Assembly (NCBI RefSeq): GCF_000025925.1
Contig: NC_014033.1
Location: forward strand, 1,050,001-1,082,000
Length of the DNA stretch: 32,000 bases
Source of the DNA: Xylanibacter ruminicola 23
Lineage (GTDB): Bacteria > Bacteroidota > Bacteroidia > Bacteroidales > Bacteroidaceae
Reading direction: 5' to 3'
Shown in pieces: positions 7,553-26,424 of this stretch. The position numbers and the translations under genes are program-made. The notes under the pieces are model-generated. The model had not been told where the DNA came from. It was given only the letters and a program-made list of their open reading frames with translations, and searched no databases. The first letter of the stretch is position 1. The number at the start of each line of letters is the position of its first letter.

Positions 7553-8186
7553 TATTCTTAGTTGTTATTTCTGGCACGATAACCAGTTGATAATCATTAT
7601 TTTCAATCATTCTTTTAAACTCATTATAAAGCTGTACGCAGGCCCACGCATCGGTGGCTGCATAGCGCTTCTGATGGTCGTCGAGTACGTCGCGCTCCCA
7701 GTTGGTTAGCTGCTCGCGTTTGCTGATGCGTTCGCCAAACACGTTGGCGTAGAGCTTAGCCAGACTCTGATCCTCGATACCTATCTTGCGGGCCATATCC
7801 TGCAAATCTACAAACTCGCCCATCTCAAAATCGCCTAACTGGTGCAAGCCTAATGCGTCGTTTCGCCATGCCAGACCTACCTTGGTTACGGTGTTGTCGG
7901 CCAACAAGCGCTTAACGGCAGGGCAAAGACCAATGTGATTCAAACGGAACAGGAAACAGCAGTTGCTGGTTGAAACCTGCAACAACGAGCACTTGTGGTG
8001 TACGCCTTTTTTAAAGCTGGGGCGCGTTTCGGTATCAAACCCAAGCACGGGTTGAGCCAGCAGGTAATCAACTGCTCGCTCGGCTTCGGCTTGTGACACC
8101 ACTACCACAATCTTTCCGTCGAAAATTGCACGTGGAAATTGCGAAATTGCCTTCTTATCTACCTTGTTTTGTATTAACTTTTTCAT
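7533..8186 (-). CDS. DEDDy-type 3'-5' exonuclease (RNase D / WRN-exo-like domain)
   Basis: ExoI motif LGFDTETRP and ExoIII motif YAATDAWA. The start was moved to ATG 8186 (MKKLIQ...) because the track start at 8198 is a TTG inside the promoter box. Overlaps rlmI by 20 nt. Confidence 0.75.
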   Translation of the reverse strand: MKKLIQNKVDKKAISQFPRAIFDGKIVVVVSQAEAERAVDYLLAQPVLGFDTETRPSFKKGVHHKCSLLQVSTSNCCFLFRLNHIGLCPAVKRLLADNTVTKVGLAWRNDALGLHQLGDFEMGEFVDLQDMARKIGIEDQSLAKLYANVFGERISKREQLTNWERDVLDDHQKRYAATDAWACVQLYNEFKRMIENNDYQLVIVPEITTKNNEETIS

Positions 8187-12934: not shown

Positions 12935-13007
12935 GCACCCGTAGCTCAGTTGGTAGAGCACCTGACTCTTAATCAGGGTGTCCAGAGTTCGAGCCTCTGC
13001 GGGTGTA
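12935..13007 (+). tRNA. tRNA-Lys (anticodon CTT)
   Basis: Hand-folded cloverleaf: acceptor GCACCCG/CGGGTGT (G1-U72 wobble), D arm GCTC-AGTTGGTA-GAGC, anticodon arm CCTGA-CTCTTAA-TCAGG, T arm CAGAG-TTCGAGC-CTCTG, discriminator A. CCA is not encoded. Confidence 0.9.
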
Positions 13008-13049
13008 CTTTTTGCAAGAAAACAGGCCCTAAAAAGCCACCAAAATGAT

Positions 13050-13122
13050 GCACCCGTAGCTCAGTTGGTAGAGCACCTGACTCTTAATCAGGGTGTCCAG
13101 AGTTCGAGCCTCTGCGGGTGTA
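13050..13122 (+). tRNA. tRNA-Lys (anticodon CTT), second identical copy
   Basis: 73/73 identical to 12935-13007 and shares the AAAATGAT 5' flank. Followed by a hairpin terminator. Confidence 0.9.
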
Positions 13123-13139
13123 CAAGTGAAGAAAAAAGA

Positions 13140-13390: not shown

Positions 13391-13423
13391 AGTCTTCCGG
13401 TGGCTGCACAAAAAAACAAAATT

Positions 13424-14569
13424 ATGAAACAACATGTAAGAGTGGTCTTTGACCGCAAGAAGGCCTCGGCCAAGACAGGAACTGGTAAGATTGAACTGTG
13501 TGTTTACCTGAAAGAAGGTGAACGCAAGTGGATCACTGTTGGTACAGCATCGCCAGAGAATTGGATGTCTGTATCAAACTCTCGCAGCATCACCTCAAAG
13601 GTGGAGCACTACGAACAGGTTATTAAAGCCATGGAACTATTGAAGGAGGATATGACAATATCCAACTTCAACCGCTATGTAGAGTTTGAGCAACTGGGAC
13701 TTAATCAAGATAAAGTGCTCTTCAATGGCAATGATTTGCGACAGAGCTTCGTGGAGTTTTGTCGTAAACATATGGAGCAAGAGAATCTGGCTCAGAACTC
13801 TATTAAGGATATCAAGGTCGTTTTAAAAAGTGTTGAAGAGTCTGGATTACTCAATACATTAGCTGATCTAACACCTGCCAATGTCCGAGCTTATGATGCC
13901 TGGCTTAGAAAGCCAAACACCAGAACTGATTATACAATTAATGGGTATCATAAGAAGGTACGCAAGTACACAAAGATTCTTTGGCAACAGGAGATTATTT
14001 CAATTGACCCTTATGACCATGTAAAGTTTCCAAAGGGCACAAATAAGGAGCGTCATCCACTTACTGAGAATGAAATCATCAAGATTCGTGATGCAGAGTT
14101 CTATGGTCGTAAAGACCGCGCAAGAGATTTGTTCGTCTTCATGGCATATACTGGACTTGCTTATTGCGACATGTGCTTGTTTAACTTCAAAACGATGACA
14201 GAATTGCATGATGATTATTATTATATCGACGGTGCTCGTCTGAAGACCGGTTCGAACTTCTTCACTCCTATCCTACCACCTGCTTTGGCCGTGCTCGAAA
14301 AATACGACTTCAAGTTGCCAATTATCAGCAATCAGAAGTTGAATGATTATTTGCATCTCATCCAAGATACATTGGATATTAGAAACGAAGTAACCTGTCA
14401 TATCGGTCGCCACTCGTTTGCTACGCTTATGCTTACTTATGGCATCCCCATCGAGAAAGTAAAGAGAATGCTCGGACACAAGAACATTGCAACGACTCAG
14501 ATCTATGCTAAGATTCTGAAGAAGAATGTAGAGGATAGTGTCAACGAGATTCTCCCTACACTCAGATAA
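13424..14569 (+). CDS. Tyrosine site-specific recombinase (phage integrase, Bacteroidetes type with N-terminal arm-binding domain)
   Basis: The N-terminus VRVVFDRKKASAKTGTGKIELCVYL is typical of the Bacteroidetes integrase arm-binding domain. The C-terminal catalytic region reads HIGRHSFATLML...LGHKNIATTQIYAKI (H-x-x-R ... H ... Y). The start is set at ATG 13424 (the track start is GTG 13400). Confidence 0.9.
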   Translation: MKQHVRVVFDRKKASAKTGTGKIELCVYLKEGERKWITVGTASPENWMSVSNSRSITSKVEHYEQVIKAMELLKEDMTISNFNRYVEFEQLGLNQDKVLFNGNDLRQSFVEFCRKHMEQENLAQNSIKDIKVVLKSVEESGLLNTLADLTPANVRAYDAWLRKPNTRTDYTINGYHKKVRKYTKILWQQEIISIDPYDHVKFPKGTNKERHPLTENEIIKIRDAEFYGRKDRARDLFVFMAYTGLAYCDMCLFNFKTMTELHDDYYYIDGARLKTGSNFFTPILPPALAVLEKYDFKLPIISNQKLNDYLHLIQDTLDIRNEVTCHIGRHSFATLMLTYGIPIEKVKRMLGHKNIATTQIYAKILKKNVEDSVNEILPTLR

Positions 14570-16528: not shown

Positions 16529-19500
16529 TTATTTCCTGCGACTTTTGGGTGATTTGTTACGGATGAGCTGGGCGTATTCGTCCTGGGCCTGTTTGATGCC
16601 GGTGTCGCCAGTGACGGTGTTGACTGTCACAAAAGGTTCGCTGAGACGATCCTTCAACTGGCGCATGATATCGGCATACTCCTTCATCTGCTTGTCAGAC
16701 TGTTCTGACTGCTGCTGGGTGGGCTGCAGGATAACTGTCGGCGATGATGGTGCGGACTGTGCGTACACGCTCGGAGCCACGATACTTCGTGAAACGTCAT
16801 CCGAGCGTAATGAACCGATGGTGTTCGTTCGCTGGGCATAGTCCAAAGCCTCAATCATCGGGCGGGCTACGGGCGACTGCAGTAACTCCTGACTGGCCAC
16901 CCACTCCCCTTTATGTACGATGCCGGCCACCTCGTATTTACCGCCGTCGCCGGTGAAGCCACCCTTGGCGTAACCCTGCGCGGCCGATGCCTCCTGCTGC
17001 TTCTTGATGGCAGCCACCTGTAGCATGCCTGCAGCTACAGCCGAAGCTGCTGCGATTGGTGCCAGGATGTAACCGATAAGTGGTACTGCAGCCGCTGAGC
17101 TGTAGGCATTGATGGCAGAAGTAGCTGTCTGTGCGATGGCCTGCATCACCTGCATCTTGAACATTTTCTTGTTCGCGTCGGACTTGACCTTGGCCACCTC
17201 CTGCTCCTTCTGCTTCTCAAGTTTCTTCACGATATAATTGTTACCTTCGGCGTTGGAGATTTCCGCCTGGTATCGCTTTTCGATGGCAGCGATTTGTATA
17301 TCCGCTTCGGCCTGAATGAGCGAAGACATCTGTTGGAAGATGCTGCTCATGCCGGAGCTGATGACATCCAGGGAACCAGTGACCGCCTTACCCATATCTG
17401 ATTGCAGCCACTCCTGAGTGGCGTCGGTCCATTCTTCGAGGAATGACTTGTTATCGTCGAGTTCGTCGATGCCGTACTTCTTACGCAGGGCCTTTTTCGC
17501 TTTCTGGTAGTCCTCTTCGATACGCAGTTTCTCTTGGGCGTTGTTGTCGGCTGCTTGTATCTCCAGGTCATAGACTACTTTGAGTGCTTCCAGGTCGGTC
17601 ATATACTTATTTGTACGCTCAGAGCGGCTGTCCCCGAAATATTCCTCCTTGATTTTCTTCAGTTGGTCCTGATGCTTCTTCTCGGCGGCTTCCGTCTCCT
17701 GTTGGCGTCGCTTCTGGTCGGCAATGAGTTTGTCCTGATATTGGGTCTGCGCCTGCGTGTATTCTGTCGTGCCCTCTTCATAGATCGACGTCATGCGCTT
17801 CAGGTGATTCAATTCCAAGAGCTCCATTGACTGCTGGTAAATCTCCTGGTCTATCTTCCCATCGATATAGCGTTGCTTCTGGATGGACATTGCTTCGTTG
17901 TAAAGCTGTGTCTCCTGTTCCACAGTGATTTTTGTATGCTGCTCCGATTGCTTCTTTTCAGCCTCTGCATATGCTGCCTGAGCCTCCAGCTTTTCTATTT
18001 CCGTGAGGTCGCTGTGTTGTAGGATCTTCGTCTGGTATTCGATTTCGATTTCCAGAATGCGCTTCTGGTACTGTTCGTAGTTCTGCTGACCGGTGGCATA
18101 ACTGATTCGATTGAGGGCTTCTTCCTTGGCTTTCCAGTCCTTTTCCTCCTTGAAGCGCTCCTGTTTTTTACTGTCGTCAGTGGGAGGTGGTGTTGGGGTC
18201 TTCTTTGGGTCTTCGGCCTTTGCTAACTTCTCCGCTTCGTCTGCCAGGCGCTGATTGTCCGCTGTGAGGGATTCGATGATGTTGTTGTACTGTGTCACCG
18301 TCTTGTCCAGACGGGACTGTTGCAGCTTCCATGCCCTGTAGGCAGTAGGACTTACATTAGCGCTGCGGATGGCCTCCGATTCCGACTGGCCCTGCTTTTC
18401 GTTGAAATAGGCGTCCTGGATGTTATGTGGCGCATCGTTGAAATGCACGTCGCGCTGATGCTCAGCGTCGGGCAGCTTGTCTAAAGCGGCTTTGATTTTG
18501 GCAGAGTTCTTCAGCTGTTCCGTATAGTTTTTCAGGATCTTGATGTTGTGACCATAGAGCTGGCCCTCCTCGCTGATGCTCGCGTGGTAGTCAGGTATGA
18601 TCTGTTGCAGCTCCTCGATGGCCTTGCGGCGCTTGTTGACAGATAGAGACTCGTTTTCTATCGTACGTTTTAGCTGCTCAATGCGGTTGATTTCCTCGCG
18701 TGTGTTGCGGTCGGCTTCCTCATTGATATCCTTCAGGCGCTTCTGAGCTGCAGCGGCCGTGCTGCTTGATTTGGCAAACTTCACGTACATTCCAATCAGG
18801 AGTGTCATAGCTGTGATGGCCACACCCATGGGGTTCATCTTCAGTACCTTGTTAAAGAATGTCTGTGCTGCTGTAGCGGCGGTGATTTCCCCTCTTAGTA
18901 CCTTGTGTTTGAGGATAGAGGCTGCCAATGCCGTGTTTTCGATGGCTATTGCTGCAGCCTTCAGTTTGGCGACGGCAATGTATCTGAGCGACCAAAGATG
19001 TTGCAGTTTGACGGCTGTATAGTAGCCCACTACAGCAGCAGTAAGTGTGATGAGTGTGCCTTTGTATTTCAGGATAAAATCTACTAGCGTAGAGAGAACT
19101 TTCAGTATGAGTGTTGTACTGCTCAGAACGTGACGCATGACGGGCTGCAGCTTTTCACCCAGTTCGATGGCCATTTCCTTGACACGCTTGCGTGCCTTGT
19201 CGAGTCCGGCCTGTACCGTAGTGTTCTGTACGTTGTATTCCTTGGTGACCGATGTTGCTTCCTTGAAAGCCTTCGCTGCTTCCGACTGTTCCCAACGAAT
19301 CATATCCAAATTACCTGCCAACGCAGATATGACCTGAGCAACTCGGGCACCGTTTTCTCCCATATCCTTGAAAATGGGTGCCAGAACGTCGATGTTACCC
19401 AGTTTGTCGAGCGTGTCTAGGAGCATCAGCAGGCCCTCGTTTGTTCCCTTGGCCAGCGTCTGCTTGAACTTCTCCGCATTCATGCCCGTAGCCTTAATAA

Positions 19501-20551
19501 TCTTATCCTGCTGCTTGAACATGTCCATGATCAGCTTCGAGACAGCTGTGGCCGACATCTCAACGGCCTGTCCCTGAGAGTCGAGGACAGCGGCCAGACC
19601 CATAATCTGTGGGATGGTCATTTCTGCCTGGGCACCTACGCCTGCCATACGCTTGGCGAAGTTGGCCAGGTATGGAGCTGATGCGGTGCAGTTCTGTGAG
19701 AGCTCGTTGATGACAGAACCAACAGACAGCAACGCTTTTTCTGTGCCTAAACGCTCTTCGTCGCCGAAGATGTTGGTCAGTTTGGAGAGTGTGAGTGTGG
19801 CCCCGTCGCCGAGCTCGTCGAGTGCGACATTGATCTGGTCAGCCGCTTTCACGAATCCCATGATATCCTCTTTCGACTGCTTGCCCAGTTTACCCGCTTC
19901 CTCTGCAAGGATGTTCAGCTGTTCACGGCTGGAGCGTGTGTCCATCTTCTTGAATTCCTCGTTCAGGTCCTCGACTTGTTCCTTGGCCATGCCCGTGAAC
20001 TTGCGGACATTAGCCATCTCTGCGTCGATGTCCGCATAGGCTTTCACAGCGGAACGGCCGGCCATAATGATACCTGTTGCAGCAGCTATCATGCCCATGA
20101 GTGTGGTCTGCCAGTCGTTCATCTTACGGTTGAAGCGGTCCCAGAATCCCTCGCCAACGGTCAGCTCGGTGTTGACCTTGGCGAGTTCCGCTTTTACCCG
20201 TTTGATGGCTTCCGCCTGCCGGTACCACTGCTCTGTACCTCGTTCGATACCGTTGAGCTGCTTCTTGAGAGTGGCTAGTGTCTTGTTCAGTTCCTTGGGT
20301 GTTGCTCTGTCGAGGTTCTTCAGGACCTTCTCCACGCCGGCAGTAGCACTCTCTATCTGGGTTATCTGCCGGTTGGTCTGCTTCAGTTCCTTCTGAAGTC
20401 GTTTGAGTTCTACCTTGTTACCCGCTTTTGCTGCGTTCTCGATAGCATGTTCCAGGTCTTGTGATTTCTTTTTGAGGTTGTCCAGCATATCCTGCGCCTG
20501 TTTGCCGTTGACAGTCAGGGTGACAGTTGCGTTTGTGTTGATTGATGACAT
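16529..20551 (-). CDS. Phage tail tape measure protein
   Basis: 1340 aa. It has long coiled-coil Q/E/K-rich stretches, central hydrophobic helices, and a C-terminal GGFTGDGGKYEVAGIVHKGEWV motif common in tape measure proteins. Confidence 0.85.
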   Translation of the reverse strand: MSSINTNATVTLTVNGKQAQDMLDNLKKKSQDLEHAIENAAKAGNKVELKRLQKELKQTNRQITQIESATAGVEKVLKNLDRATPKELNKTLATLKKQLNGIERGTEQWYRQAEAIKRVKAELAKVNTELTVGEGFWDRFNRKMNDWQTTLMGMIAAATGIIMAGRSAVKAYADIDAEMANVRKFTGMAKEQVEDLNEEFKKMDTRSSREQLNILAEEAGKLGKQSKEDIMGFVKAADQINVALDELGDGATLTLSKLTNIFGDEERLGTEKALLSVGSVINELSQNCTASAPYLANFAKRMAGVGAQAEMTIPQIMGLAAVLDSQGQAVEMSATAVSKLIMDMFKQQDKIIKATGMNAEKFKQTLAKGTNEGLLMLLDTLDKLGNIDVLAPIFKDMGENGARVAQVISALAGNLDMIRWEQSEAAKAFKEATSVTKEYNVQNTTVQAGLDKARKRVKEMAIELGEKLQPVMRHVLSSTTLILKVLSTLVDFILKYKGTLITLTAAVVGYYTAVKLQHLWSLRYIAVAKLKAAAIAIENTALAASILKHKVLRGEITAATAAQTFFNKVLKMNPMGVAITAMTLLIGMYVKFAKSSSTAAAAQKRLKDINEEADRNTREEINRIEQLKRTIENESLSVNKRRKAIEELQQIIPDYHASISEEGQLYGHNIKILKNYTEQLKNSAKIKAALDKLPDAEHQRDVHFNDAPHNIQDAYFNEKQGQSESEAIRSANVSPTAYRAWKLQQSRLDKTVTQYNNIIESLTADNQRLADEAEKLAKAEDPKKTPTPPPTDDSKKQERFKEEKDWKAKEEALNRISYATGQQNYEQYQKRILEIEIEYQTKILQHSDLTEIEKLEAQAAYAEAEKKQSEQHTKITVEQETQLYNEAMSIQKQRYIDGKIDQEIYQQSMELLELNHLKRMTSIYEEGTTEYTQAQTQYQDKLIADQKRRQQETEAAEKKHQDQLKKIKEEYFGDSRSERTNKYMTDLEALKVVYDLEIQAADNNAQEKLRIEEDYQKAKKALRKKYGIDELDDNKSFLEEWTDATQEWLQSDMGKAVTGSLDVISSGMSSIFQQMSSLIQAEADIQIAAIEKRYQAEISNAEGNNYIVKKLEKQKEQEVAKVKSDANKKMFKMQVMQAIAQTATSAINAYSSAAAVPLIGYILAPIAAASAVAAGMLQVAAIKKQQEASAAQGYAKGGFTGDGGKYEVAGIVHKGEWVASQELLQSPVARPMIEALDYAQRTNTIGSLRSDDVSRSIVAPSVYAQSAPSSPTVILQPTQQQSEQSDKQMKEYADIMRQLKDRLSEPFVTVNTVTGDTGIKQAQDEYAQLIRNKSPKSRRK

Positions 20552-20583
20552 GATTTACAAGTTTAAATATGGATTTACAAGTG

Positions 20584-20591
20584 CAAATATA
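20584..20591 (-). promoter_or_regulatory. -7 box (TATATTTG on minus strand) directly upstream of the tape measure gene
   Basis: CAAATATA on the + strand lies 33 nt upstream of ATG 20551. The leader consists of two direct ACTTGTAAATC repeats (minus-strand sense; 20552-20562 and 20572-20582). Confidence 0.45.
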
Positions 20592-21120
20592 GTTTCGTGC
20601 GTGTTTATGTGAAAAGACGTGTCTGATGCCCATGCCTGAGACTTGACTGGGTGAAGGTATGGGGCGCACATCAGGCACTTTTCATTGATTATCCCACAGT
20701 TATTTGTTAAAACTGAAAATAGTTAAGTTAATAACCCTTTCGGTTGCTGATAATCAATGACTTACGGGATTGTTAAGGGCTGTGCCCTTAACCCGTCGGG
20801 ATAGACACCCCCCACGCGCCCTGCCCTCGCCTCCCGCTCCCAACGCTCAGAAGAAGCGGAATATGTAAACAGATGTTAAGAAAATGGGGCTTGAAGTCGG
20901 ATATTGTTAAGAAAGCCCCCGAAGTTGCGCATAGGCTCAAAAGCCCTTGAAATTCAGCTAAAATGACGAATGTGCGGTACTGAGCCACAGGTGCGACACG
21001 AAATCCCTTTGACTTGGCAAAGGGTTGCGTGGCGTACTTGTGGAATGGGCGAATCAGACACTCTTCGGCTTGACCTCAATCTTTGATTGAAATCATAGCC
21101 GATGTGTGTCCGCCCTGGCG

Positions 21121-21288
21121 CACGGATGTGCGGTACTGGGCAGGGGTGAACAGGCATAAAGAAAATCAGAGGCAGAGTGTTGGCTCACCAGAGCCTTAAC
21201 GTGCCCCTGACTTTTCTGTTGACTGTTCTCTCCTGCTTGCCTCCAGAGCCGAATGTGGCTGGGCTTTATGCGCTGCCTCTTTCGGCTG
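21121..21288. repeat. Structured non-coding module, copy A (long form)
   Basis: Shares ordered blocks with copy B: CACGGATGTGCGGTA, GGGGTGAA, CTCCTGCTT, and a 42-nt block AGCCGAATGTGGCTGGGCTTTATGCGCTGCCTCTTTCGGCTG (41/42 identical). Copy A also carries a 73-nt insertion (21152-21224) inside a conserved stem. Confidence 0.6.
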
Positions 21289-21291
21289 GAA

Positions 21292-21705
21292 CTACTGTTT
21301 TAGCATGGCTTTGCCGTACTTGTACCACCAGTAAACAGAATTGTAGAGTGCGTAAACACGCTCTTTGAAGAAGTCTGGATACTTTGGTGTTAGCTCTTCT
21401 GCATTGTAACCTGCAATGACACAGATGAAAGAGAGGTCGGCCTCGATGTAATCACACCATTTGTTCTGACCAAGACACCAACCGAGGATGTTATCAAACT
21501 CGGCTTCGCTTTTTGGCAACTGCACGTGCACGACAAGGTGCGGCTTGTCCTGCTGGTACAGGAGCCAATAGGAACCATGTCCTTCGATGTGTTTCAACTC
21601 TGCCTTGAAGGACTCGAAGGCAACATGCTTAGGCTTTAGCCCAGGCTTCTGTAGGCGTGGGAACAATACTAAATCACTTTTTTCAATCTTTCTGATTTCC
21701 ATCAT
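21292..21705 (-). CDS. Hypothetical phage protein (137 aa)
   Basis: Clean ORF with a plausible composition and its own -7 box at 21819-21826. No motif recognised. Confidence 0.6.
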   Translation of the reverse strand: MMEIRKIEKSDLVLFPRLQKPGLKPKHVAFESFKAELKHIEGHGSYWLLYQQDKPHLVVHVQLPKSEAEFDNILGWCLGQNKWCDYIEADLSFICVIAGYNAEELTPKYPDFFKERVYALYNSVYWWYKYGKAMLKQ

Positions 21706-21818
21706 CGTAAATTTTTAGTGGGTTAAACAATCTCACTCACATCATTTTACCACCGATGCCTACGACAGTTGGCCGGTTGGTGGGCAAATTGTGCCACTCT
21801 TGATGCAATTTTCTGCTG

Positions 21819-21826
21819 CAAAGGTA
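21819..21826 (-). promoter_or_regulatory. -7 box (TACCTTTG on minus strand) for the 137-aa gene
   Basis: CAAAGGTA on the + strand lies about 115 nt upstream of ATG 21705. Confidence 0.45.
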
Positions 21827-22202
21827 TGGATTTTATTCGGAATGAACAAATGTTTTGAAGGAAATGTATTTTTAGAGTGAGCCGTAGGCTTAGTGTTGGC
21901 AAGCGCTTGCTGGACTTTTAAGTACAGATTTTTGTGTGCCTGTGGTGAGCTGTAAGCCATTTGTGGAATGAAAACGGCAGGAGTGCGTAGGTGCTGCGCG
22001 ACATACAGCAATCGCTGTCCACTTGTGGCAAAACAGTGTGTATGTGCTTGCACATTCTCTCTATTTTGAAGCGTTGCCGTATGCCGCATTAGCAGCACCT
22101 TCGCTCTCCAGAGTGTCATGTAACAAGTGGCCAGCCCACCTCAGGCATACAAAAAGCATATCGCAGATATGAAAGCACGCAGGGGTGTGTGGGCTGGGTG
22201 CT

Positions 22203-22305
22203 CACGGATGTGCGGTAAAAAAGAGGCTGGGGTGAATTTGATTCACTCCTGCTTATTGATGATAGCCGAATGTGGCAGGGCTTTATGCGCTGCCTCTTTC
22301 GGCTG
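22203..22305. repeat. Structured non-coding module, copy B (short form)
   Basis: Same block order as copy A. The stem GGGGTGAAT-ttg-ATTCACTCC (22229-22249) closes with a 3-nt loop where copy A has a 73-nt insertion. Confidence 0.6.
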
Positions 22306-22497
22306 AGTGCCAGCGGCTAGGAGAGGACACGGGACTTGATAGACTTAGAACTTCGTTTCTATGAATGATTATTGAAGGAACGCAGGAGATTGTGAGTGGG
22401 TTTACTGCAAGGATGAGTGGTATAAGGATACTTATGCCGCAAGATTCCCTTTGTTTTGGAAATGAGTTCGAACTGTACTGTTGGATTGGAATTTATT

Positions 22498-23847
22498 TCA
22501 ATTTGAACCTAGTAAATATTTTCTACCCTCATCTGTTTTTAGTAATGGTATAATTTTCTCCAACAAATCGAATAAATAGGATTTAAGAAGATCTTTAGAG
22601 TCGCACTCTCTTCTCTTTGCCATCCCCGCAATGGGCTCTGACTTTGTCCTATATTGACAATAATAACAGAAATCACTCTCCAGATATTCCAATTTAATAT
22701 TTAATGTTTTATTAATAATACTTACTAAAGATTCTGAAGGCCTAAATTCTGATTCTGCAGAAAATAAGACAGTATATTCATACCACCCATAATCGTCTCT
22801 ACCAGCTCTGTAATTGCCGTCTTCAAAGCAAGTGACTTTAAGACTTAAAATAAAATTCATTAGATTGCGAATATCTTTGTCTTCAATAATATAATCCTTA
22901 CATATCCCTATTGGAACTTTATACTTGAAGCCTTCTATCGCTTTTTCTTGATTAAACTTAAGAAATAGTTGAAGATACAATTTTCTTTGAAGATATCTTT
23001 TAAAAGCTTCTAAGTCATACATATAATACTTGGGGAGGTTTTTGATTGTTCCAATGTATTGAACAGTTTTTTCAATAGTTACTATTTTAATGCTTGAATT
23101 AGTAATAACTTCCAACATATTTGCCAAATACAAATTTGGCAAAACATTTTTGTTTCCATAGAATTTGACAGTGCATTCTTTATGTTCAACCGACCAAATA
23201 TCAAGATCATCTCTGACATTTACTTCCAAATTATAAACCATAGATAAAACATTCCTTATATTTATTGAATGGCTTTTCCTTAAAGCTTCTTTATCTACAA
23301 AAGAAGAACTATCTGTTAACTCATTTATTTTCCGATCCCAATATTGGAAATTTATATTATGTGTAATAATACCTTTGTCTAATATTTCATTTATCTCTGG
23401 AATAACATTAGAAAAGAGAAAATGTATTGGGCTCTTTATACCGGATTCTTTTTTACCATCCTTAAAAAATATAGATTGATTTACATCGAAAATATGCTCT
23501 ATCGGTTTCTTCCATTTATTACTTTGATAGTCGGAATCATAAATAGACGTATGAATAGAATAACTATAAAAAATGATATAACTATTAGGATCGCCATATG
23601 GAGACTCTCTCTTGTTTACTTTAATAGTTATCTTAGAAATCTTTATATTACCTATCATTATCTCCACCTCTACCTTTTCTTTCGTGTTGATATTTATGTA
23701 ACCTAATGAACAAATAAAATTATTTTTTTTATGTTCAATTTCAACAAAAGGAACATCATCAGCTATAAAATCATATTCCTTTATTTGTTCATAAAAATCC
23801 GTATAATTAGAAACTTCTATTACCTCTTGATTATTTATTAGAATCAT
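22498..23847 (-). CDS. AT-rich orphan protein (449 aa), function unknown; candidate prophage accessory/defence gene
   Basis: Uninterrupted 449-aa ORF rich in Asn/Ile/Lys/Tyr. A sampled 60-nt line (23101-23160) has 16 G+C, against 35 G+C in a tape-measure line (17041-17100). Its own -7 box lies at 23870-23877. Confidence 0.75.
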   Translation of the reverse strand: MILINNQEVIEVSNYTDFYEQIKEYDFIADDVPFVEIEHKKNNFICSLGYININTKEKVEVEIMIGNIKISKITIKVNKRESPYGDPNSYIIFYSYSIHTSIYDSDYQSNKWKKPIEHIFDVNQSIFFKDGKKESGIKSPIHFLFSNVIPEINEILDKGIITHNINFQYWDRKINELTDSSSFVDKEALRKSHSINIRNVLSMVYNLEVNVRDDLDIWSVEHKECTVKFYGNKNVLPNLYLANMLEVITNSSIKIVTIEKTVQYIGTIKNLPKYYMYDLEAFKRYLQRKLYLQLFLKFNQEKAIEGFKYKVPIGICKDYIIEDKDIRNLMNFILSLKVTCFEDGNYRAGRDDYGWYEYTVLFSAESEFRPSESLVSIINKTLNIKLEYLESDFCYYCQYRTKSEPIAGMAKRRECDSKDLLKSYLFDLLEKIIPLLKTDEGRKYLLGSN

Positions 23848-23869: not shown

Positions 23870-23877
23870 CAAAGATA
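23870..23877 (-). promoter_or_regulatory. -7 box (TATCTTTG on minus strand) for the 449-aa orphan gene
   Basis: CAAAGATA on the + strand lies 22 nt upstream of ATG 23847. Confidence 0.5.
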
Positions 23878-25479: not shown

Positions 25480-26424
25480 ATGAGAATAAGAGATATAGAT
25501 GTGAATTTTGATTTTACTTCTGATACCAAAGGATTTTGGGAAGGCTTTTGGGAAAGAAACGATGGACTTGGGGCTGGAGGCGCAGATCCTGATTCCAGAA
25601 GTAAAACGCTTAGACTATATAGTCAGCTATTATGGAGTAAGCCATTACCTAATGGTGAATTAATGGAACTAGAAGATGGCAGAAGTAAATTCTATCTAAA
25701 ATGGAAGGATTTCTATTTCGGAAACGATTCTATTACTGCTTCTTTTAGATATTATCGAAACAGACCGCTTTTGGAAGAAGTAAAGAAGAATGTACCCGAT
25801 TATCATCAGTTCGTAGAAACGTATCTTCATCAACTATATCAGATTGGTGGTGAAGTCATATTGCCATCTGCGGTCGGGGGAATAAATCAGACTAGGGGAT
25901 TTCGGGCTGATATACGTGACCGATGGGATTTGACATTAGAATGTATTCGTCGATTCTATAATGGAGATGACAGCCCATTAAGTGATGTATTGAATAAGAA
26001 TAAAGCTTTTTTTGAATTGTTTGTGGACTTTAAGGGCTATGTGGATTTCTTCTTTTTTCAAGATCTTGTCGATAAGAATTATGCAAGTGTCAAACTATGG
26101 TTGGATACTCCGCTGTTTGTAAAGAACCCCATCCCAAAGACTGTTGATGAATACTTTAATTTCTTGAACAAGGAAATAGAATTTGTAGAAAGTAGGAATA
26201 TAAGAATTCAGCATTACATTAATTCTGTGACTAAGAAGGATGAATTTACAACTATGATGCACGCTGACCTACTAGCTGAAGACGGTTGGTCGAGATTAGA
26301 TGTCATGGTGCTCGGTGCCTATGCAAATATTCTAAAAGGAATAAAGAAAGCCGATGCCTGTAAGAATCACGGTATCACGATAGAAGAATATGATGAGAAT
26401 ATAGAGCGAGTCAAAAAGCTTTAA
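25480..26424 (+). CDS. AT-rich orphan protein (314 aa), function unknown; opposite strand to all neighbouring phage genes
   Basis: Clean ORF with Trp/Phe/Asp-rich N-terminal motifs (GFWEGFWERNDGLGAGGADPDSRSKTLRLYSQLLWSK). Its stop TAA (26422-26424) abuts the stop of the convergent gene. Confidence 0.75.
   Translation: MRIRDIDVNFDFTSDTKGFWEGFWERNDGLGAGGADPDSRSKTLRLYSQLLWSKPLPNGELMELEDGRSKFYLKWKDFYFGNDSITASFRYYRNRPLLEEVKKNVPDYHQFVETYLHQLYQIGGEVILPSAVGGINQTRGFRADIRDRWDLTLECIRRFYNGDDSPLSDVLNKNKAFFELFVDFKGYVDFFFFQDLVDKNYASVKLWLDTPLFVKNPIPKTVDEYFNFLNKEIEFVESRNIRIQHYINSVTKKDEFTTMMHADLLAEDGWSRLDVMVLGAYANILKGIKKADACKNHGITIEEYDENIERVKKL

Follow-up and report, generated by a model that had tools for sequence, protein, structure and literature searches.

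Conserved hairpin modules at gene junctions in rumen Prevotella/Xylanibacter prophages: candidate boundary elements of moron slots

Two copies of a hairpin module lie on either side of a 137-aa gene in a prophage of Xylanibacter ruminicola 23, which raises the question of whether such repeats are parts of a structured RNA, scars of recombination, or something else. In temperate phages of gut and rumen Bacteroidota, accessory genes specific to a strain are mostly concentrated in a few hot spots, the organization of which is poorly known. We analyzed a 32-kb stretch of DNA (the window, which includes ~13 kb of host DNA) and ~20 related contigs, whose loci are labeled L002, L003, L005, L007, etc. 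The two copies, A and B, are located between a 194-aa tail-region gene and the tape-measure gene, in what is a hyperplastic non-coding region. The carriers form a narrow clade of siphovirus-like prophages of rumen Prevotella/Xylanibacter, and the host phage is a temperate phage of Bacteroidota. The hot spot here is built around a conserved folded element, the hairpins of which coincide nucleotide for nucleotide with the junctions of cargo genes.

Inspection of the region revealed two paralogous copies, A (21119-21288) and B (22201-22305), each comprised of three hairpins, b1, P2, and P3, the last being the 42-nt block of each copy. Both close a larger base-paired non-coding unit: copy A closes unit A (20966-21288), and copy B, together with a mid-domain (21931-22153), makes up and closes unit B. 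In phages without cargo, the units together span ~1.2 kb. The features are as follows.

20584-20591, minus strand: promoter-like -7 motif TATATTTG, which precedes the tape-measure gene and is the downstream limit of the non-coding region
20966-20982, unstranded: motif C (ACGAATGTGCGGTACTG), third copy of the block-1 motif, which opens unit A
20985-21043, unstranded: H1, a long hairpin of unit A whose apical stem, CCCTTTG/CAAAGGG, lies at 21005-21024; covariation (helices 1-2)
21047-21115, unstranded: H2, the second long hairpin of unit A, with GACAC/GTGTC, CGGCT/AGCCG, and TCAATC/GATTGA; covariation (helices 3-4)
21119-21135, unstranded: b1 of copy A, a small hairpin (CGCAC-GGAT-GTGCG) followed by GTA; block 1 of the first-pass annotation
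21140-21236, unstranded: P2 of copy A, with basal helix GCAGGGGTGAACAG / CTGTTCTCTCCTGC (21140-21156 with 21220-21236); covariation (helices 6-8)
21247-21288, unstranded: P3 of copy A, a 42-nt hairpin with outer stem GCCGAA/TTCGGC, conserved internal mismatches, and a variable apex
21292-21705, minus strand: 137-aa ORF (cargo), with its stop 3 nt from the 42-nt block
21701-21811, minus strand: SAM-I/IV riboswitch aptamer (Rfam RF01725, 57.4 bits against a gathering score of 41.1), overlapping the ATG of the 137-aa ORF
21819-21850, minus strand: Bacteroidetes-type promoter-like motif TTTG-N20-TACCTTTG, directly upstream of the riboswitch; a pattern match only
21931-22153, unstranded: mid-domain of unit B, a long branched hairpin with inverted repeats I2, I3, and I5
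22201-22217, unstranded: b1 of copy B (CTCAC-GGAT-GTGCG, one mismatch), followed by GTA
22224-22254, unstranded: P2 of copy B, short form, GGCT.GGGGTGAAT-TTG-ATTCACTCC.TGCT
22263-22305, unstranded: P3 of copy B; the 42-nt block proper is 22264-22305
22365-22425, unstranded: remnant of a third unit, truncated next to the 3' end of the 449-aa ORF
22498-23847, minus strand: 449-aa ORF, with promoter-like TATCTTTG at 23870-23877

The blocks described by the first-pass annotation were all located where it had placed them. The 42-nt block was identical at 41 of 42 positions in the two copies, with a T/A as the single difference, and gave two matches in the window compared with none in 100 shuffles. 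ACGGATGTGCGGTA was present at 21122 and 22204, with a one-mismatch copy at 20966 (three matches compared with 0.1 expected). The last of these had been called a third partial copy (20970-20982); the sequence copy is indeed there, but it is a conserved motif (GAATGKGCGGTA) with which unit A opens in every relative. Motif C folds as a small hairpin (CGCCC-GAAT-GGGCG) in several relatives, and GAATGKGCGGTA, which resembles the 5' side of P3, occurs two or three times per unit. Variants of b1 in the relatives include GCAC-GAA-GTGC and CACAC-TT-GTGTG. The remnant of the third unit aligns with the sequence ahead of b1 in unit B of other phages, at 86% over 36 nt for four loci (L002, L017, L020, and L021) and at 78% over 60 nt for L022.

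Further inspection of P2 confirmed that its stem is conserved and its terminal part varies in length, as first claimed. The helix GGGGTGAAT/ATTCACTCC of copy B corresponds to GGGGTGAAC...GTTCTCTCC in copy A, and the change of the loop-end pair from T-A to C-G could be read directly from the sequence; in 11 homologues this pair was CG (5), UG (4), or UA (1). The terminal part is either 3 nt or ~70 nt, and the stem is kept either way. Copy B and L005 have the short P2, as does the unit-A position of L030; copy A has the long one, as does the unit-B position of the same locus. The 73 nt of copy A, described previously as an insert that folds, do fold, but as a rod-like extension of P2 (21161-21215) with the apical stem GGCTC/GAGCC rather than as an insert; in the long rod, A-rich and U-rich flanks pair with each other. 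The CAGGGG...CCCCTG pairing proposed for it did not hold, as CAGGGG belongs to the 5' arm of P2 and CCCCTG pairs instead with CAGAGG (TCAGAGGCA / TGCCCCTGA), with compensatory changes in relatives.

The family proved to be small and young, with many copies >95% identical. An exact 27-mer was found in 5 of ~185,000 species genomes, in one or two places each. Covariance model R1 detected only two copies of P3 in the whole window. Searches with models R1 and R2 found no homologues of P3 or of H1-H2 in phages with 51 to 79% tape-measure identity, and H1 was detected by R2 in the close clade only. A distant blastn search of the GenBank phage collection with 20552-22497 gave no match. The pattern GGGGYGAA..TTCNCTCCTGCTT in viral contigs also matched L008 to L010, which were coding-like on inspection. 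The search of Rfam 15 that had been proposed likewise yielded no homologous family: at the gathering threshold, only tRNA-Lys (twice) and SAM-I/IV were found in the window, and a permissive search gave nothing relevant at E of ≤10 in 20500-22600 or at E of ≤1 in five homologous loci. As P3 begins GAGCCG, we considered domain V of a group II intron as a candidate, but Rfam gave no intron match; a CRISPR repeat mimic was a further candidate identity.

Covarying stems were found in related prophage contigs; the helices are kept, with covariation, in the ~20 contigs compared. For the 88 pairs of unit A, 94.6% of cells were paired, compared with 38 to 44% with slid partners, and 29 pairs were altered on both sides, compared with 12.1 ± 2.2 in shuffles (0/500). 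P3 alone was 92% paired, with a covariation score of 0.27 against 0.14 in shuffles (0/500). In the mid-domain, 33 of 79 predicted pairs showed at least two Watson-Crick types among eight sequences. H1, H2, and the mid-domain together contain ~170 covarying or conserved pairs, and covariation spans roughly 700 nt. Folding of both modules was more stable than that of shuffles on the plus and minus strands (z of -5.1 and -4.1 for A; -5.8 and -5.6 for B). These results show that selection maintains pairing in the helices.

The modules contain no ORF, and the lengths of their indels are not divisible by three. For the small ORFs that overlap the region there was no Pfam or PHROG match, and tblastn with neighboring phage ORFs gave nothing above chance in the modules, in line with the earlier view that they are not protein-coding remnants. 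With pre-tape-measure ORFs of more distant phages, tblastn matched only the 194-aa and 139-aa genes plus a core at 20696-20851; the core match reflects nucleotide conservation, and that frame holds no 40-codon ORF in the window. These comparisons support the view that the base pairing of copies A and B is conserved, that its covariation is real, and that neither copy is decayed coding sequence. The probability that they are functionless scars, leftovers of duplications or of decayed genes, is very small: the family is young and parts are lost in L007 and L027, but compensatory changes maintain pairing in relatives that are only 70 to 83% identical.

Comparison of the loci revealed that P3 is a recurrent junction, to which unrelated cargo genes are joined tail to hairpin. 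The sequence directly beyond ...TTCGGCT differs among six classes of loci. The cargo abutting P3 is the 137-aa gene, a metallophosphoesterase gene, or a gene for a Sel1-repeat protein, with stop codons -1 to 29 nt from the hairpin; AT-rich ORFs for putative lipoproteins are further off. The 137-aa stop is 4 to 6 nt from the hairpin in six loci, including the diverged L023 and L026, that of the metallophosphoesterase overlaps the hairpin in five loci, and the Sel1-repeat gene ends 29 nt away. In the window, copy A lies 3 nt from the 137-aa stop and copy B 192 nt from the 449-aa stop, in agreement with the distances first reported. In "empty" sites a 13-nt hairpin takes the place of cargo, and comparison with filled sites indicated that ~45 nt of filler, that hairpin among it, gave way to the 137-aa cargo, which added no hairpin of its own. 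The cargo always lies outside the helices. In L015 and L018, the order is cupin, metallophosphoesterase, P3. We had considered the metallophosphoesterase junction as a prophage-host boundary, but in these two loci phage sequence (the cupin cargo) follows the gene; synteny beyond it varies.

The repeats also participate in rearrangements between phages, namely deletions, duplications, and replacements. Two copy-A-like modules flank AT-rich ORFs for putative lipoproteins in L003, an exact deletion between two ATGTGCGGTACT repeats was found in L007, and a 373-aa gene stands in place of the module in L027. Because L007 and L027 lack parts of it, the element may be dispensable. The segment 21289-22202, proposed earlier to be a single cassette, is not one: only 21289 to approximately 21876 is variable cargo, and the rest is a conserved structured domain. 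Relatives without the 137-aa gene still hold A and B (e.g., L002/L021 and L017), and therefore its insertion did not create them. The modules are thus older than the 137-aa gene at the locus. The alternative put forward at first, recombination scars bounding an inserted cassette, stands insofar as the 137-aa gene is inserted cargo and P3 a recurrent junction, and fails in that A and B predate the insertion. A homologue of the 449-aa ORF was found in 0 of 16 related loci (tblastn matched the window only), and we infer that it is further cargo.

A moron is a unit of promoter, gene, and terminator found among the late genes of temperate phages. The 137-aa gene is a predicted self-contained moron with its own promoter-like motif and a SAM-I/IV riboswitch as leader, and it is flanked by tail genes and occurs in only some of the close relatives. 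Equivalent slots are filled by other cargo. The adjoining structured element differs in being phage scaffold, conserved whichever moron is present. The riboswitch also is found upstream of 137-aa homologues elsewhere, where the pair heads restriction-modification-like operons, and P3 is absent there; hence P3 belongs to the phage scaffold and not to the cargo. The same observation led us to reject P3 as the native terminator of the 137-aa gene.

TAnnTTTG motifs (by pattern match) occur on the minus strand only, preceding the tape-measure gene, the riboswitch, and the 449-aa gene, so that at least two cargo genes have putative promoter motifs of their own. Neither a TAnnTTTG motif nor a sigma-70-like site was found inside either module on either strand. 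As reported in the first-pass annotation, there is no U-tract at P3 on either strand, and a simple terminator scan made no call on P3. P3 therefore lacks the hairpin-plus-U-tract arrangement of an intrinsic terminator, the A/U flanks of the P2 rod pair with each other, and the internal mismatches and flanks of P3 are conserved beyond the needs of a plain terminator.

We tentatively prefer, as possible though short of probable, the explanation that the modules are conserved structured boundary elements of moron slots, acting as insulators and recombination handles. Transcription in the gene sense (the minus strand of the window) would include the modules, immediately 3' of the stop codons of the cargo. 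P3, with the long P2 rod where present, would form or stabilize 3' ends, and such insulators would keep each moron, as well as the late genes upstream, apart from the promoter that follows (that of the riboswitch or of the tape-measure gene). As the modules are conserved and repeated, they would supply homology with which related phages swap, gain, and lose cargo. The weak points of this explanation are the large domains H1, H2, and the mid-domain, which insulation does not explain, the missing U-tract and the extra conservation of P3, a slight lean of H1, P2, and the mid-domain to the plus strand, and the partial loss of the element in L007 and L027. If it is true, it provides a concrete, testable rule for the entry sites of morons in these phages.

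A close known system is the PeSL (promoter-early stem-loop) cassette of T4-type phages, which combines a strong early promoter, sigma-70-like, with a terminator hairpin and in which recombination between neighboring repeats yields mini-circles (Arbiol et al. 2010, PMC2839356; Comeau et al. 2014, PMC4122927). Both systems have short conserved repeats with a stem-loop, situated between non-essential ORFs in hyperplastic regions, and in both the breakpoints of indels and replacements among related phages fall at the repeats. Unlike PeSLs, the modules contain no promoter motif, the promoters belonging to the cargo; they have three hairpins over ~100 to 170 nt with conserved unpaired bases, lie within larger structured units, and are hosted by a temperate siphovirus of Bacteroidota instead of a T4-like myovirus. 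The modules behave in a PeSL-like way, yet they fall outside the PeSL family. REP/BIME palindromes can stabilize upstream mRNA and promote rearrangements, and they too are imperfect palindromes 3' of genes. The modules, however, do not appear to be a high-copy family genome-wide, as the window has only two P3 copies, both in this region. A diversity-generating retroelement (DGR) has a reverse transcriptase nearby, a repeat overlapping the 3' end of a target gene, and adenine-specific differences; a scan of the ORFs near the repeats gave no reverse transcriptase, neither copy lies within an ORF, and the 42-nt blocks differ only by one T/A. On their defining features, attC and DGR identities were rejected, and a REP identity is unlikely.

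The foremost alternative, which we consider somewhat unlikely, is one or more genes for a dedicated large structured RNA, ~1.2 kb without cargo and acting in trans, with b1-P2-P3 as a shared terminal domain; equally doubtful is its corollary that cargo gathers beside P3 as the only insertion site that does not disrupt the RNA. The extent and quality of the covariation favor it, as does the placement of cargo. The conserved unpaired nucleotides of P3 and the repeated GAATGTGCGGTA motif suggest recognition of a partner. The consensus folding energy was lower on the plus strand (-82 versus -69 kcal/mol and -93 versus -70 kcal/mol), and H1, P2, and the mid-domain are more stable on that strand. 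Counts of G-U versus A-C (98:55 and 53:33 cells; 26:20 and 17:14 columns) lean modestly the same way, but the unbiased G-U:A-C ratio is only about 1.7:1, with both intermediate types tolerated, and H2 favors the minus strand in 11 of 11 sequences. There is no Bacteroidetes-type promoter on the plus strand within 20400-22870. The missing Rfam match, the narrow clade, and the deletions in L007 and L027 also argue against such an RNA. The initial proposal of a structured RNA is partly supported: conserved pairing with covariation is upheld, and the evidence on the strand is mixed, with a modest plus lean and Bacteroidetes-type promoter motifs on the minus strand only.

Large prophage-associated structured RNAs such as ROOL and GOLLD are known (PMC5737381). 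The units share with them hundreds of nucleotides of covarying structure, a prophage context, and a rumen origin, but match no Rfam 15 model of ROOL, GOLLD, group II intron, or 6S, and they have a modular, repeated organization with genes between units. A dedicated RNA would add a new member to a small prophage-linked set. It is conceivable, although we hold it to be doubtful, that the units together are a previously undescribed large ornate phage RNA or folded-nucleic-acid scaffold, built of tandem paralogous domains that end in b1-P2-P3 and whose ends serve as docking slots for cargo; such an element would have its own role, over and above termination, in lysogeny or in virion production.

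A double-stranded DNA control region, in which protein-binding motifs or palindromes serve the tape-measure or cargo promoters, replication, or packaging, is improbable; improbable, too, is the associated proposal that template switching maintains palindromes and so gives apparent covariation. The recurrence of GAATGKGCGGTA and its likeness to P3, the tolerance of both G-T-type and A-C-type intermediates, and the deeply conserved core that adjoins the tape-measure promoter are consistent with it. However, helices of 15 to 20 bp with loops and bulges, kept through many independent double changes in nine helices, go beyond the needs of dimeric sites, and a P2 stem kept with either 3 or ~70 nt between its arms is incompatible with a protein site of fixed spacing.

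We regard as highly improbable that the modules are attC-like folded single-stranded DNA sites at which a tyrosine recombinase captures or excises cassettes. Integron attC arrays include near-identical chromosomal ones, such as Vibrio repeats. The likeness lies in an imperfect hairpin 3' of unrelated ORFs, at times overlapping the stop codon, with a P2 terminal part as variable as that of attC and repeats that delimit exchangeable genes. The weak strand bias also fits DNA, and covariation methods do not separate single-stranded DNA from RNA (PMC5737381). A tyrosine recombinase gene is present (13400-14569), the only recombinase, but it is 6.5 kb from the modules and beside tRNA-Lys, the position expected for phage integration. 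Neither P2 (GGTGAAC/GTTCTCT) nor P3 (ends GCCGAA/TTCGGC), read from the sequence, contains RYYYAAC/GTTRRRY core sites, and there is no intI/attI/Pc platform. The cargo carries no site of its own, the 137-aa gene having displaced filler only, while some cargo has promoter-like motifs, and large conserved domains lie between the sites.

The AlphaFold model of the 137-aa protein had a pLDDT of 46. Searches of the literature for a link between SAM riboswitches and restriction-modification, or for a structured RNA of Prevotella phages, returned nothing relevant. The riboswitch is predicted to control this small conserved protein, whose gene stands alone as a phage moron here and leads restriction-modification-like operons elsewhere, which hints at SAM supply being wired to DNA-methylation-based defense or counter-defense.

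The modules lie in a prophage beside two tRNA-Lys(CTT) genes, presumably its attachment site; the prophage also carries a 649-aa gene. Positions 20552-22497 are nearly free of coding sequence apart from the 137-aa ORF. The features concerned are as follows.

12935-13008 and 13050-13123, identical tandem tRNA-Lys(CTT) genes, directly adjoining the integrase gene
13400-14569, + strand, tyrosine integrase
16529-20551, - strand, 1340-aa tape-measure gene (Pfam PhageMin_Tail)
20584-20591, promoter-like -7 motif before the tape-measure gene
20985-21043, hairpin H1
21047-21115, hairpin H2
21140-21236, P2 of unit A
21247-21288, P3 of unit A
21292-21705, - strand, 137-aa ORF
21701-21811, - strand, SAM-I/IV riboswitch (Rfam, 57.4 bits; gathering score, 41.1), overlapping the ORF start codon
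21819-21850, - strand, Bacteroidetes-type promoter-like motif TTTG-N20-TACCTTTG, just upstream of the riboswitch
21931-22153, mid-domain, a conserved long branched hairpin between the 137-aa cargo and copy B
22365-22425, remnant of a third unit
23870-23877, promoter-like -7 motif before the 449-aa gene

As the first-pass annotation had noted, a 42-nt block recurs with 41/42 identity; it matches the window twice, at 21247-21288 and 22264-22305, and matched 100 shuffles not once. ACGGATGTGCGGTA is found at 21122, at 22204, and, with one mismatch, at 20966 (three matches, 0.1 expected), and the copy B helix GGGGTGAAT-ttg-ATTCACTCC and its copy A counterpart are as claimed, including the change of the loop-end pair from T-A to C-G. 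Dinucleotide shuffles fold much less stably than either copy, whichever strand is taken: copy A folds at -79.4 kcal/mol with a z of -5.1 on the + strand (-4.1 on the - strand), and copy B gives -5.8 and -5.6, respectively. The 73 nt described as an insert in copy A proved to be part of P2, which they extend into a long rod. In Prevotella sp. MA2016, the second module has a perfect TCTGAAGCA/TGCTTCAGA as its counterpart of the rod pairing TCAGAGGCA/TGCCCCTGA; therefore, the CAGGGG/CCCCTG pairing proposed for this stretch is not the conserved one. The finding is genuine and reaches beyond what was described.

Eleven homologues of unit A were aligned, motif C through P3. The order of elements is motif C (GAATGKGCGGTA), H1, H2, an optional small hairpin (missing in the window), b1 (CGCAC-GGAT-GTGCG, then GTA), P2, and P3. 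RNAalifold predicted 93 pairs, and 30 of these show compensatory double changes. Removal of one invariant long-range helix left 88 pairs, for which 94.6% of cells are paired, compared with 38 to 44% when partners are slid by 1 to 3 columns. Twenty-nine pairs changed on both sides, compared with 12.1+-2.2 in column shuffles, and 0/500 shuffles reached the observed value. P3 alone is 92% paired across 16 distinct variants. Its stem GCCGAA/TTCGGC became GCCGGA/TCCGGC in three lineages and its apical stems vary freely; a conserved G-C pair is flanked by mismatches that are conserved too. Either position can have a short or a long P2; in the related locus L030, unit A carries the short P2 and unit B the long one. 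A second conserved domain, the mid-domain (79 predicted pairs, 33 with at least two Watson-Crick types among eight sequences), precedes copy B, which is therefore the terminal part of a second unit.

Covariation cannot tell single-stranded DNA from RNA (Weinberg et al., PMC5737381). Consensus folding energies were -82 (+) versus -69 (-) kcal/mol for unit A and -93 (+) versus -70 (-) kcal/mol for the mid-domain. The + strand is stabler for H1 and P2, and the - strand is stabler for H2 in 11/11 sequences. Pooled over positions pairable on either strand, G-U:A-C stood at only 98:55 and 53:33 for cells and at 26:20 and 17:14 for columns. Recognizable promoters are confined to the - strand, with no Bacteroidetes-type promoter-like motif on the + strand at 20400-22870. 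The structural part of the original structured-RNA reading is supported, the helices being kept with compensatory changes; its assignments to RNA and to a strand are not yet supported.

Exact-pattern scans located the hairpin in two viral contigs, eight metagenome contigs, and five genomes (Prevotella sp. MA2016, Xylanibacter ruminicola KHT3, and three rumen MAGs). A search with the tape-measure N terminus returned 58 viral loci at 27 to 98% identity, and the noncoding region is detectable by blastn (70 to 83% identity) in L023, L025, L026, L028, L029, L030, L037, and L075. Covariance models R1 (P3) and R2 (the long hairpins H1-H2) match their targets solely within the close clade, with no targets in phages of 51 to 79% tape-measure identity and nothing further in the window. 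There was no match in GenBank phages, no Rfam 15 family for the element in the window or five homologous loci, and no description of it in the literature searched. Only a narrow clade of prophages, those of rumen Prevotella/Xylanibacter, carries the element.

The sequence directly after P3 (...TTCGGCT) varies by locus and falls into six classes. Two are gene 3' ends, that of the 137-aa gene and that of a 374-aa metallophosphoesterase gene (Pfam Metallophos). A third, in the window, is the stretch that runs toward the 449-aa gene. A fourth, in L002, L017, L025, and the second module of L022, is a short "empty-site" hairpin, TGGCTTTAGCCA. In L003 it is AT-rich DNA in which two copy-A-like modules bracket two putative lipoprotein ORFs, and L014 has other sequence. 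On the gene-sense strand, six loci, the diverged L023 and L026 among them, have the 137-aa stop 4 to 6 nt ahead of the hairpin; in five loci the P3 hairpin and the metallophosphoesterase stop overlap, and a 518-aa Sel1-repeat gene ends 29 nt from the hairpin. Comparison of empty with filled sites places the 137-aa cargo at ~21289-21876, where it replaces ~45 nt of filler and contributes no hairpin. The metallophosphoesterase gene is also mosaic cargo, 97 to 99% identical in at least five settings, phage and chromosomal, with differing flanks (L005 1101-2225, L006 1405-2319, L015 4978-6099, L018 4251-5372, and L019), and it always adjoins P3 in them. It follows a cupin cargo gene within the phage in L015 and L018; in L005 and L006 its surroundings are chromosomal, with toxin-antitoxin or redox genes. 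In X. ruminicola KHT3 it is ~250 nt from the tRNA-Lys pair, beside a 68-nt mid-domain fragment; this site has the look of a scar left by prophage deletion.

Where a cupin gene lies beside unit B (L002 2650-2700, L011, L016, L017, L020, and L021), the junction is inside P3, after AGCCGA, and the cupin 3' end provides a new complementary arm, so that a different hairpin replaces P3 beyond its first six bases. The 5' arm of this hairpin (gene sense) comprises the last cupin codons, with the stop codon in the loop. In L007, a related MAG prophage, H1-H2 (window 20982-21121) is exactly deleted between two ATGTGCGGTACT repeats (7568-7583), at a site corresponding to window 20966-20981 and 21122-21137. 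A 373-aa gene stands where b1-P2-P3 would be in L027.

The SAM-I/IV riboswitch, with its own promoter-like motif, is predicted to control the 137-aa ORF. The protein's family comprises at least 214 clusters and has no Pfam or PHROG annotation, and its AlphaFold model (pLDDT 46) is too poor for use. Homologues 64 to 81% identical (loci L078-L084) retain the riboswitch. Two homologues were traced to contigs, and each is gene 1 of a restriction-modification-like operon with the riboswitch retained; one is followed by HTH_3, a 948-aa ResIII helicase, and an N6_N4 methyltransferase, and the other by a 317-aa protein, a MutH-like protein, and a DNA methylase. P3 is absent after the homologue in both contigs. 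Therefore, P3 is phage scaffold and the riboswitch-gene pair is a portable unit. The literature searched does not describe a link of this riboswitch and gene to restriction-modification operons.

The best-supported interpretation concerns behavior: the modules serve as boundary elements, conserved and structured, for moron slots (sites for accessory genes) in the tail-gene region and, being repeats, participate in deletion, duplication, and the exchange of cargo. The PeSL cassettes of T4-type phages share this behavior (PMC2839356, PMC4122927); however, the modules here are not PeSLs, because they lack a promoter and canonical terminators do not include P3. On gene-sense transcripts, the modules would serve in 3'-end formation, mRNA protection, and insulation, a role that fits their position directly after stop codons, with promoters coming next. 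This mechanism leaves the conserved unpaired bases and the large extra domains unexplained, and for that reason a dedicated large RNA stays a serious rival. The earlier alternative of recombination scars bounding an inserted cassette is half right: the 137-aa gene is cargo, but modules A and B also occur in phages without it. attC sites, DGR repeats, and membership of any Rfam family were rejected, as the modules fail the defining tests.

Other features of the prophage were also noted. A 20-nt tandem direct repeat (GATTTACAAGTTTAAATATG / GATTTACAAGTGCAAATATA) occupies 20552-20591, between the tape-measure start codon and the promoter-like -7 motif. Just upstream of the tape-measure promoter, a deeply conserved noncoding core at ~20700-20880 (CATATTCCGC ... 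CAGGGCGCGTGGGGGG ... GGGTTAAGGGC-NNN-GCCCTTAACAATCCC) persists in phages with just 67 to 79% tape-measure identity, and its hairpin is swapped for a different one at the same place in L038 and L046. A DUF6994 gene (E 1e-74; 25480-26424, + strand), on the strand opposite to the neighboring phage genes, is possibly further cargo.
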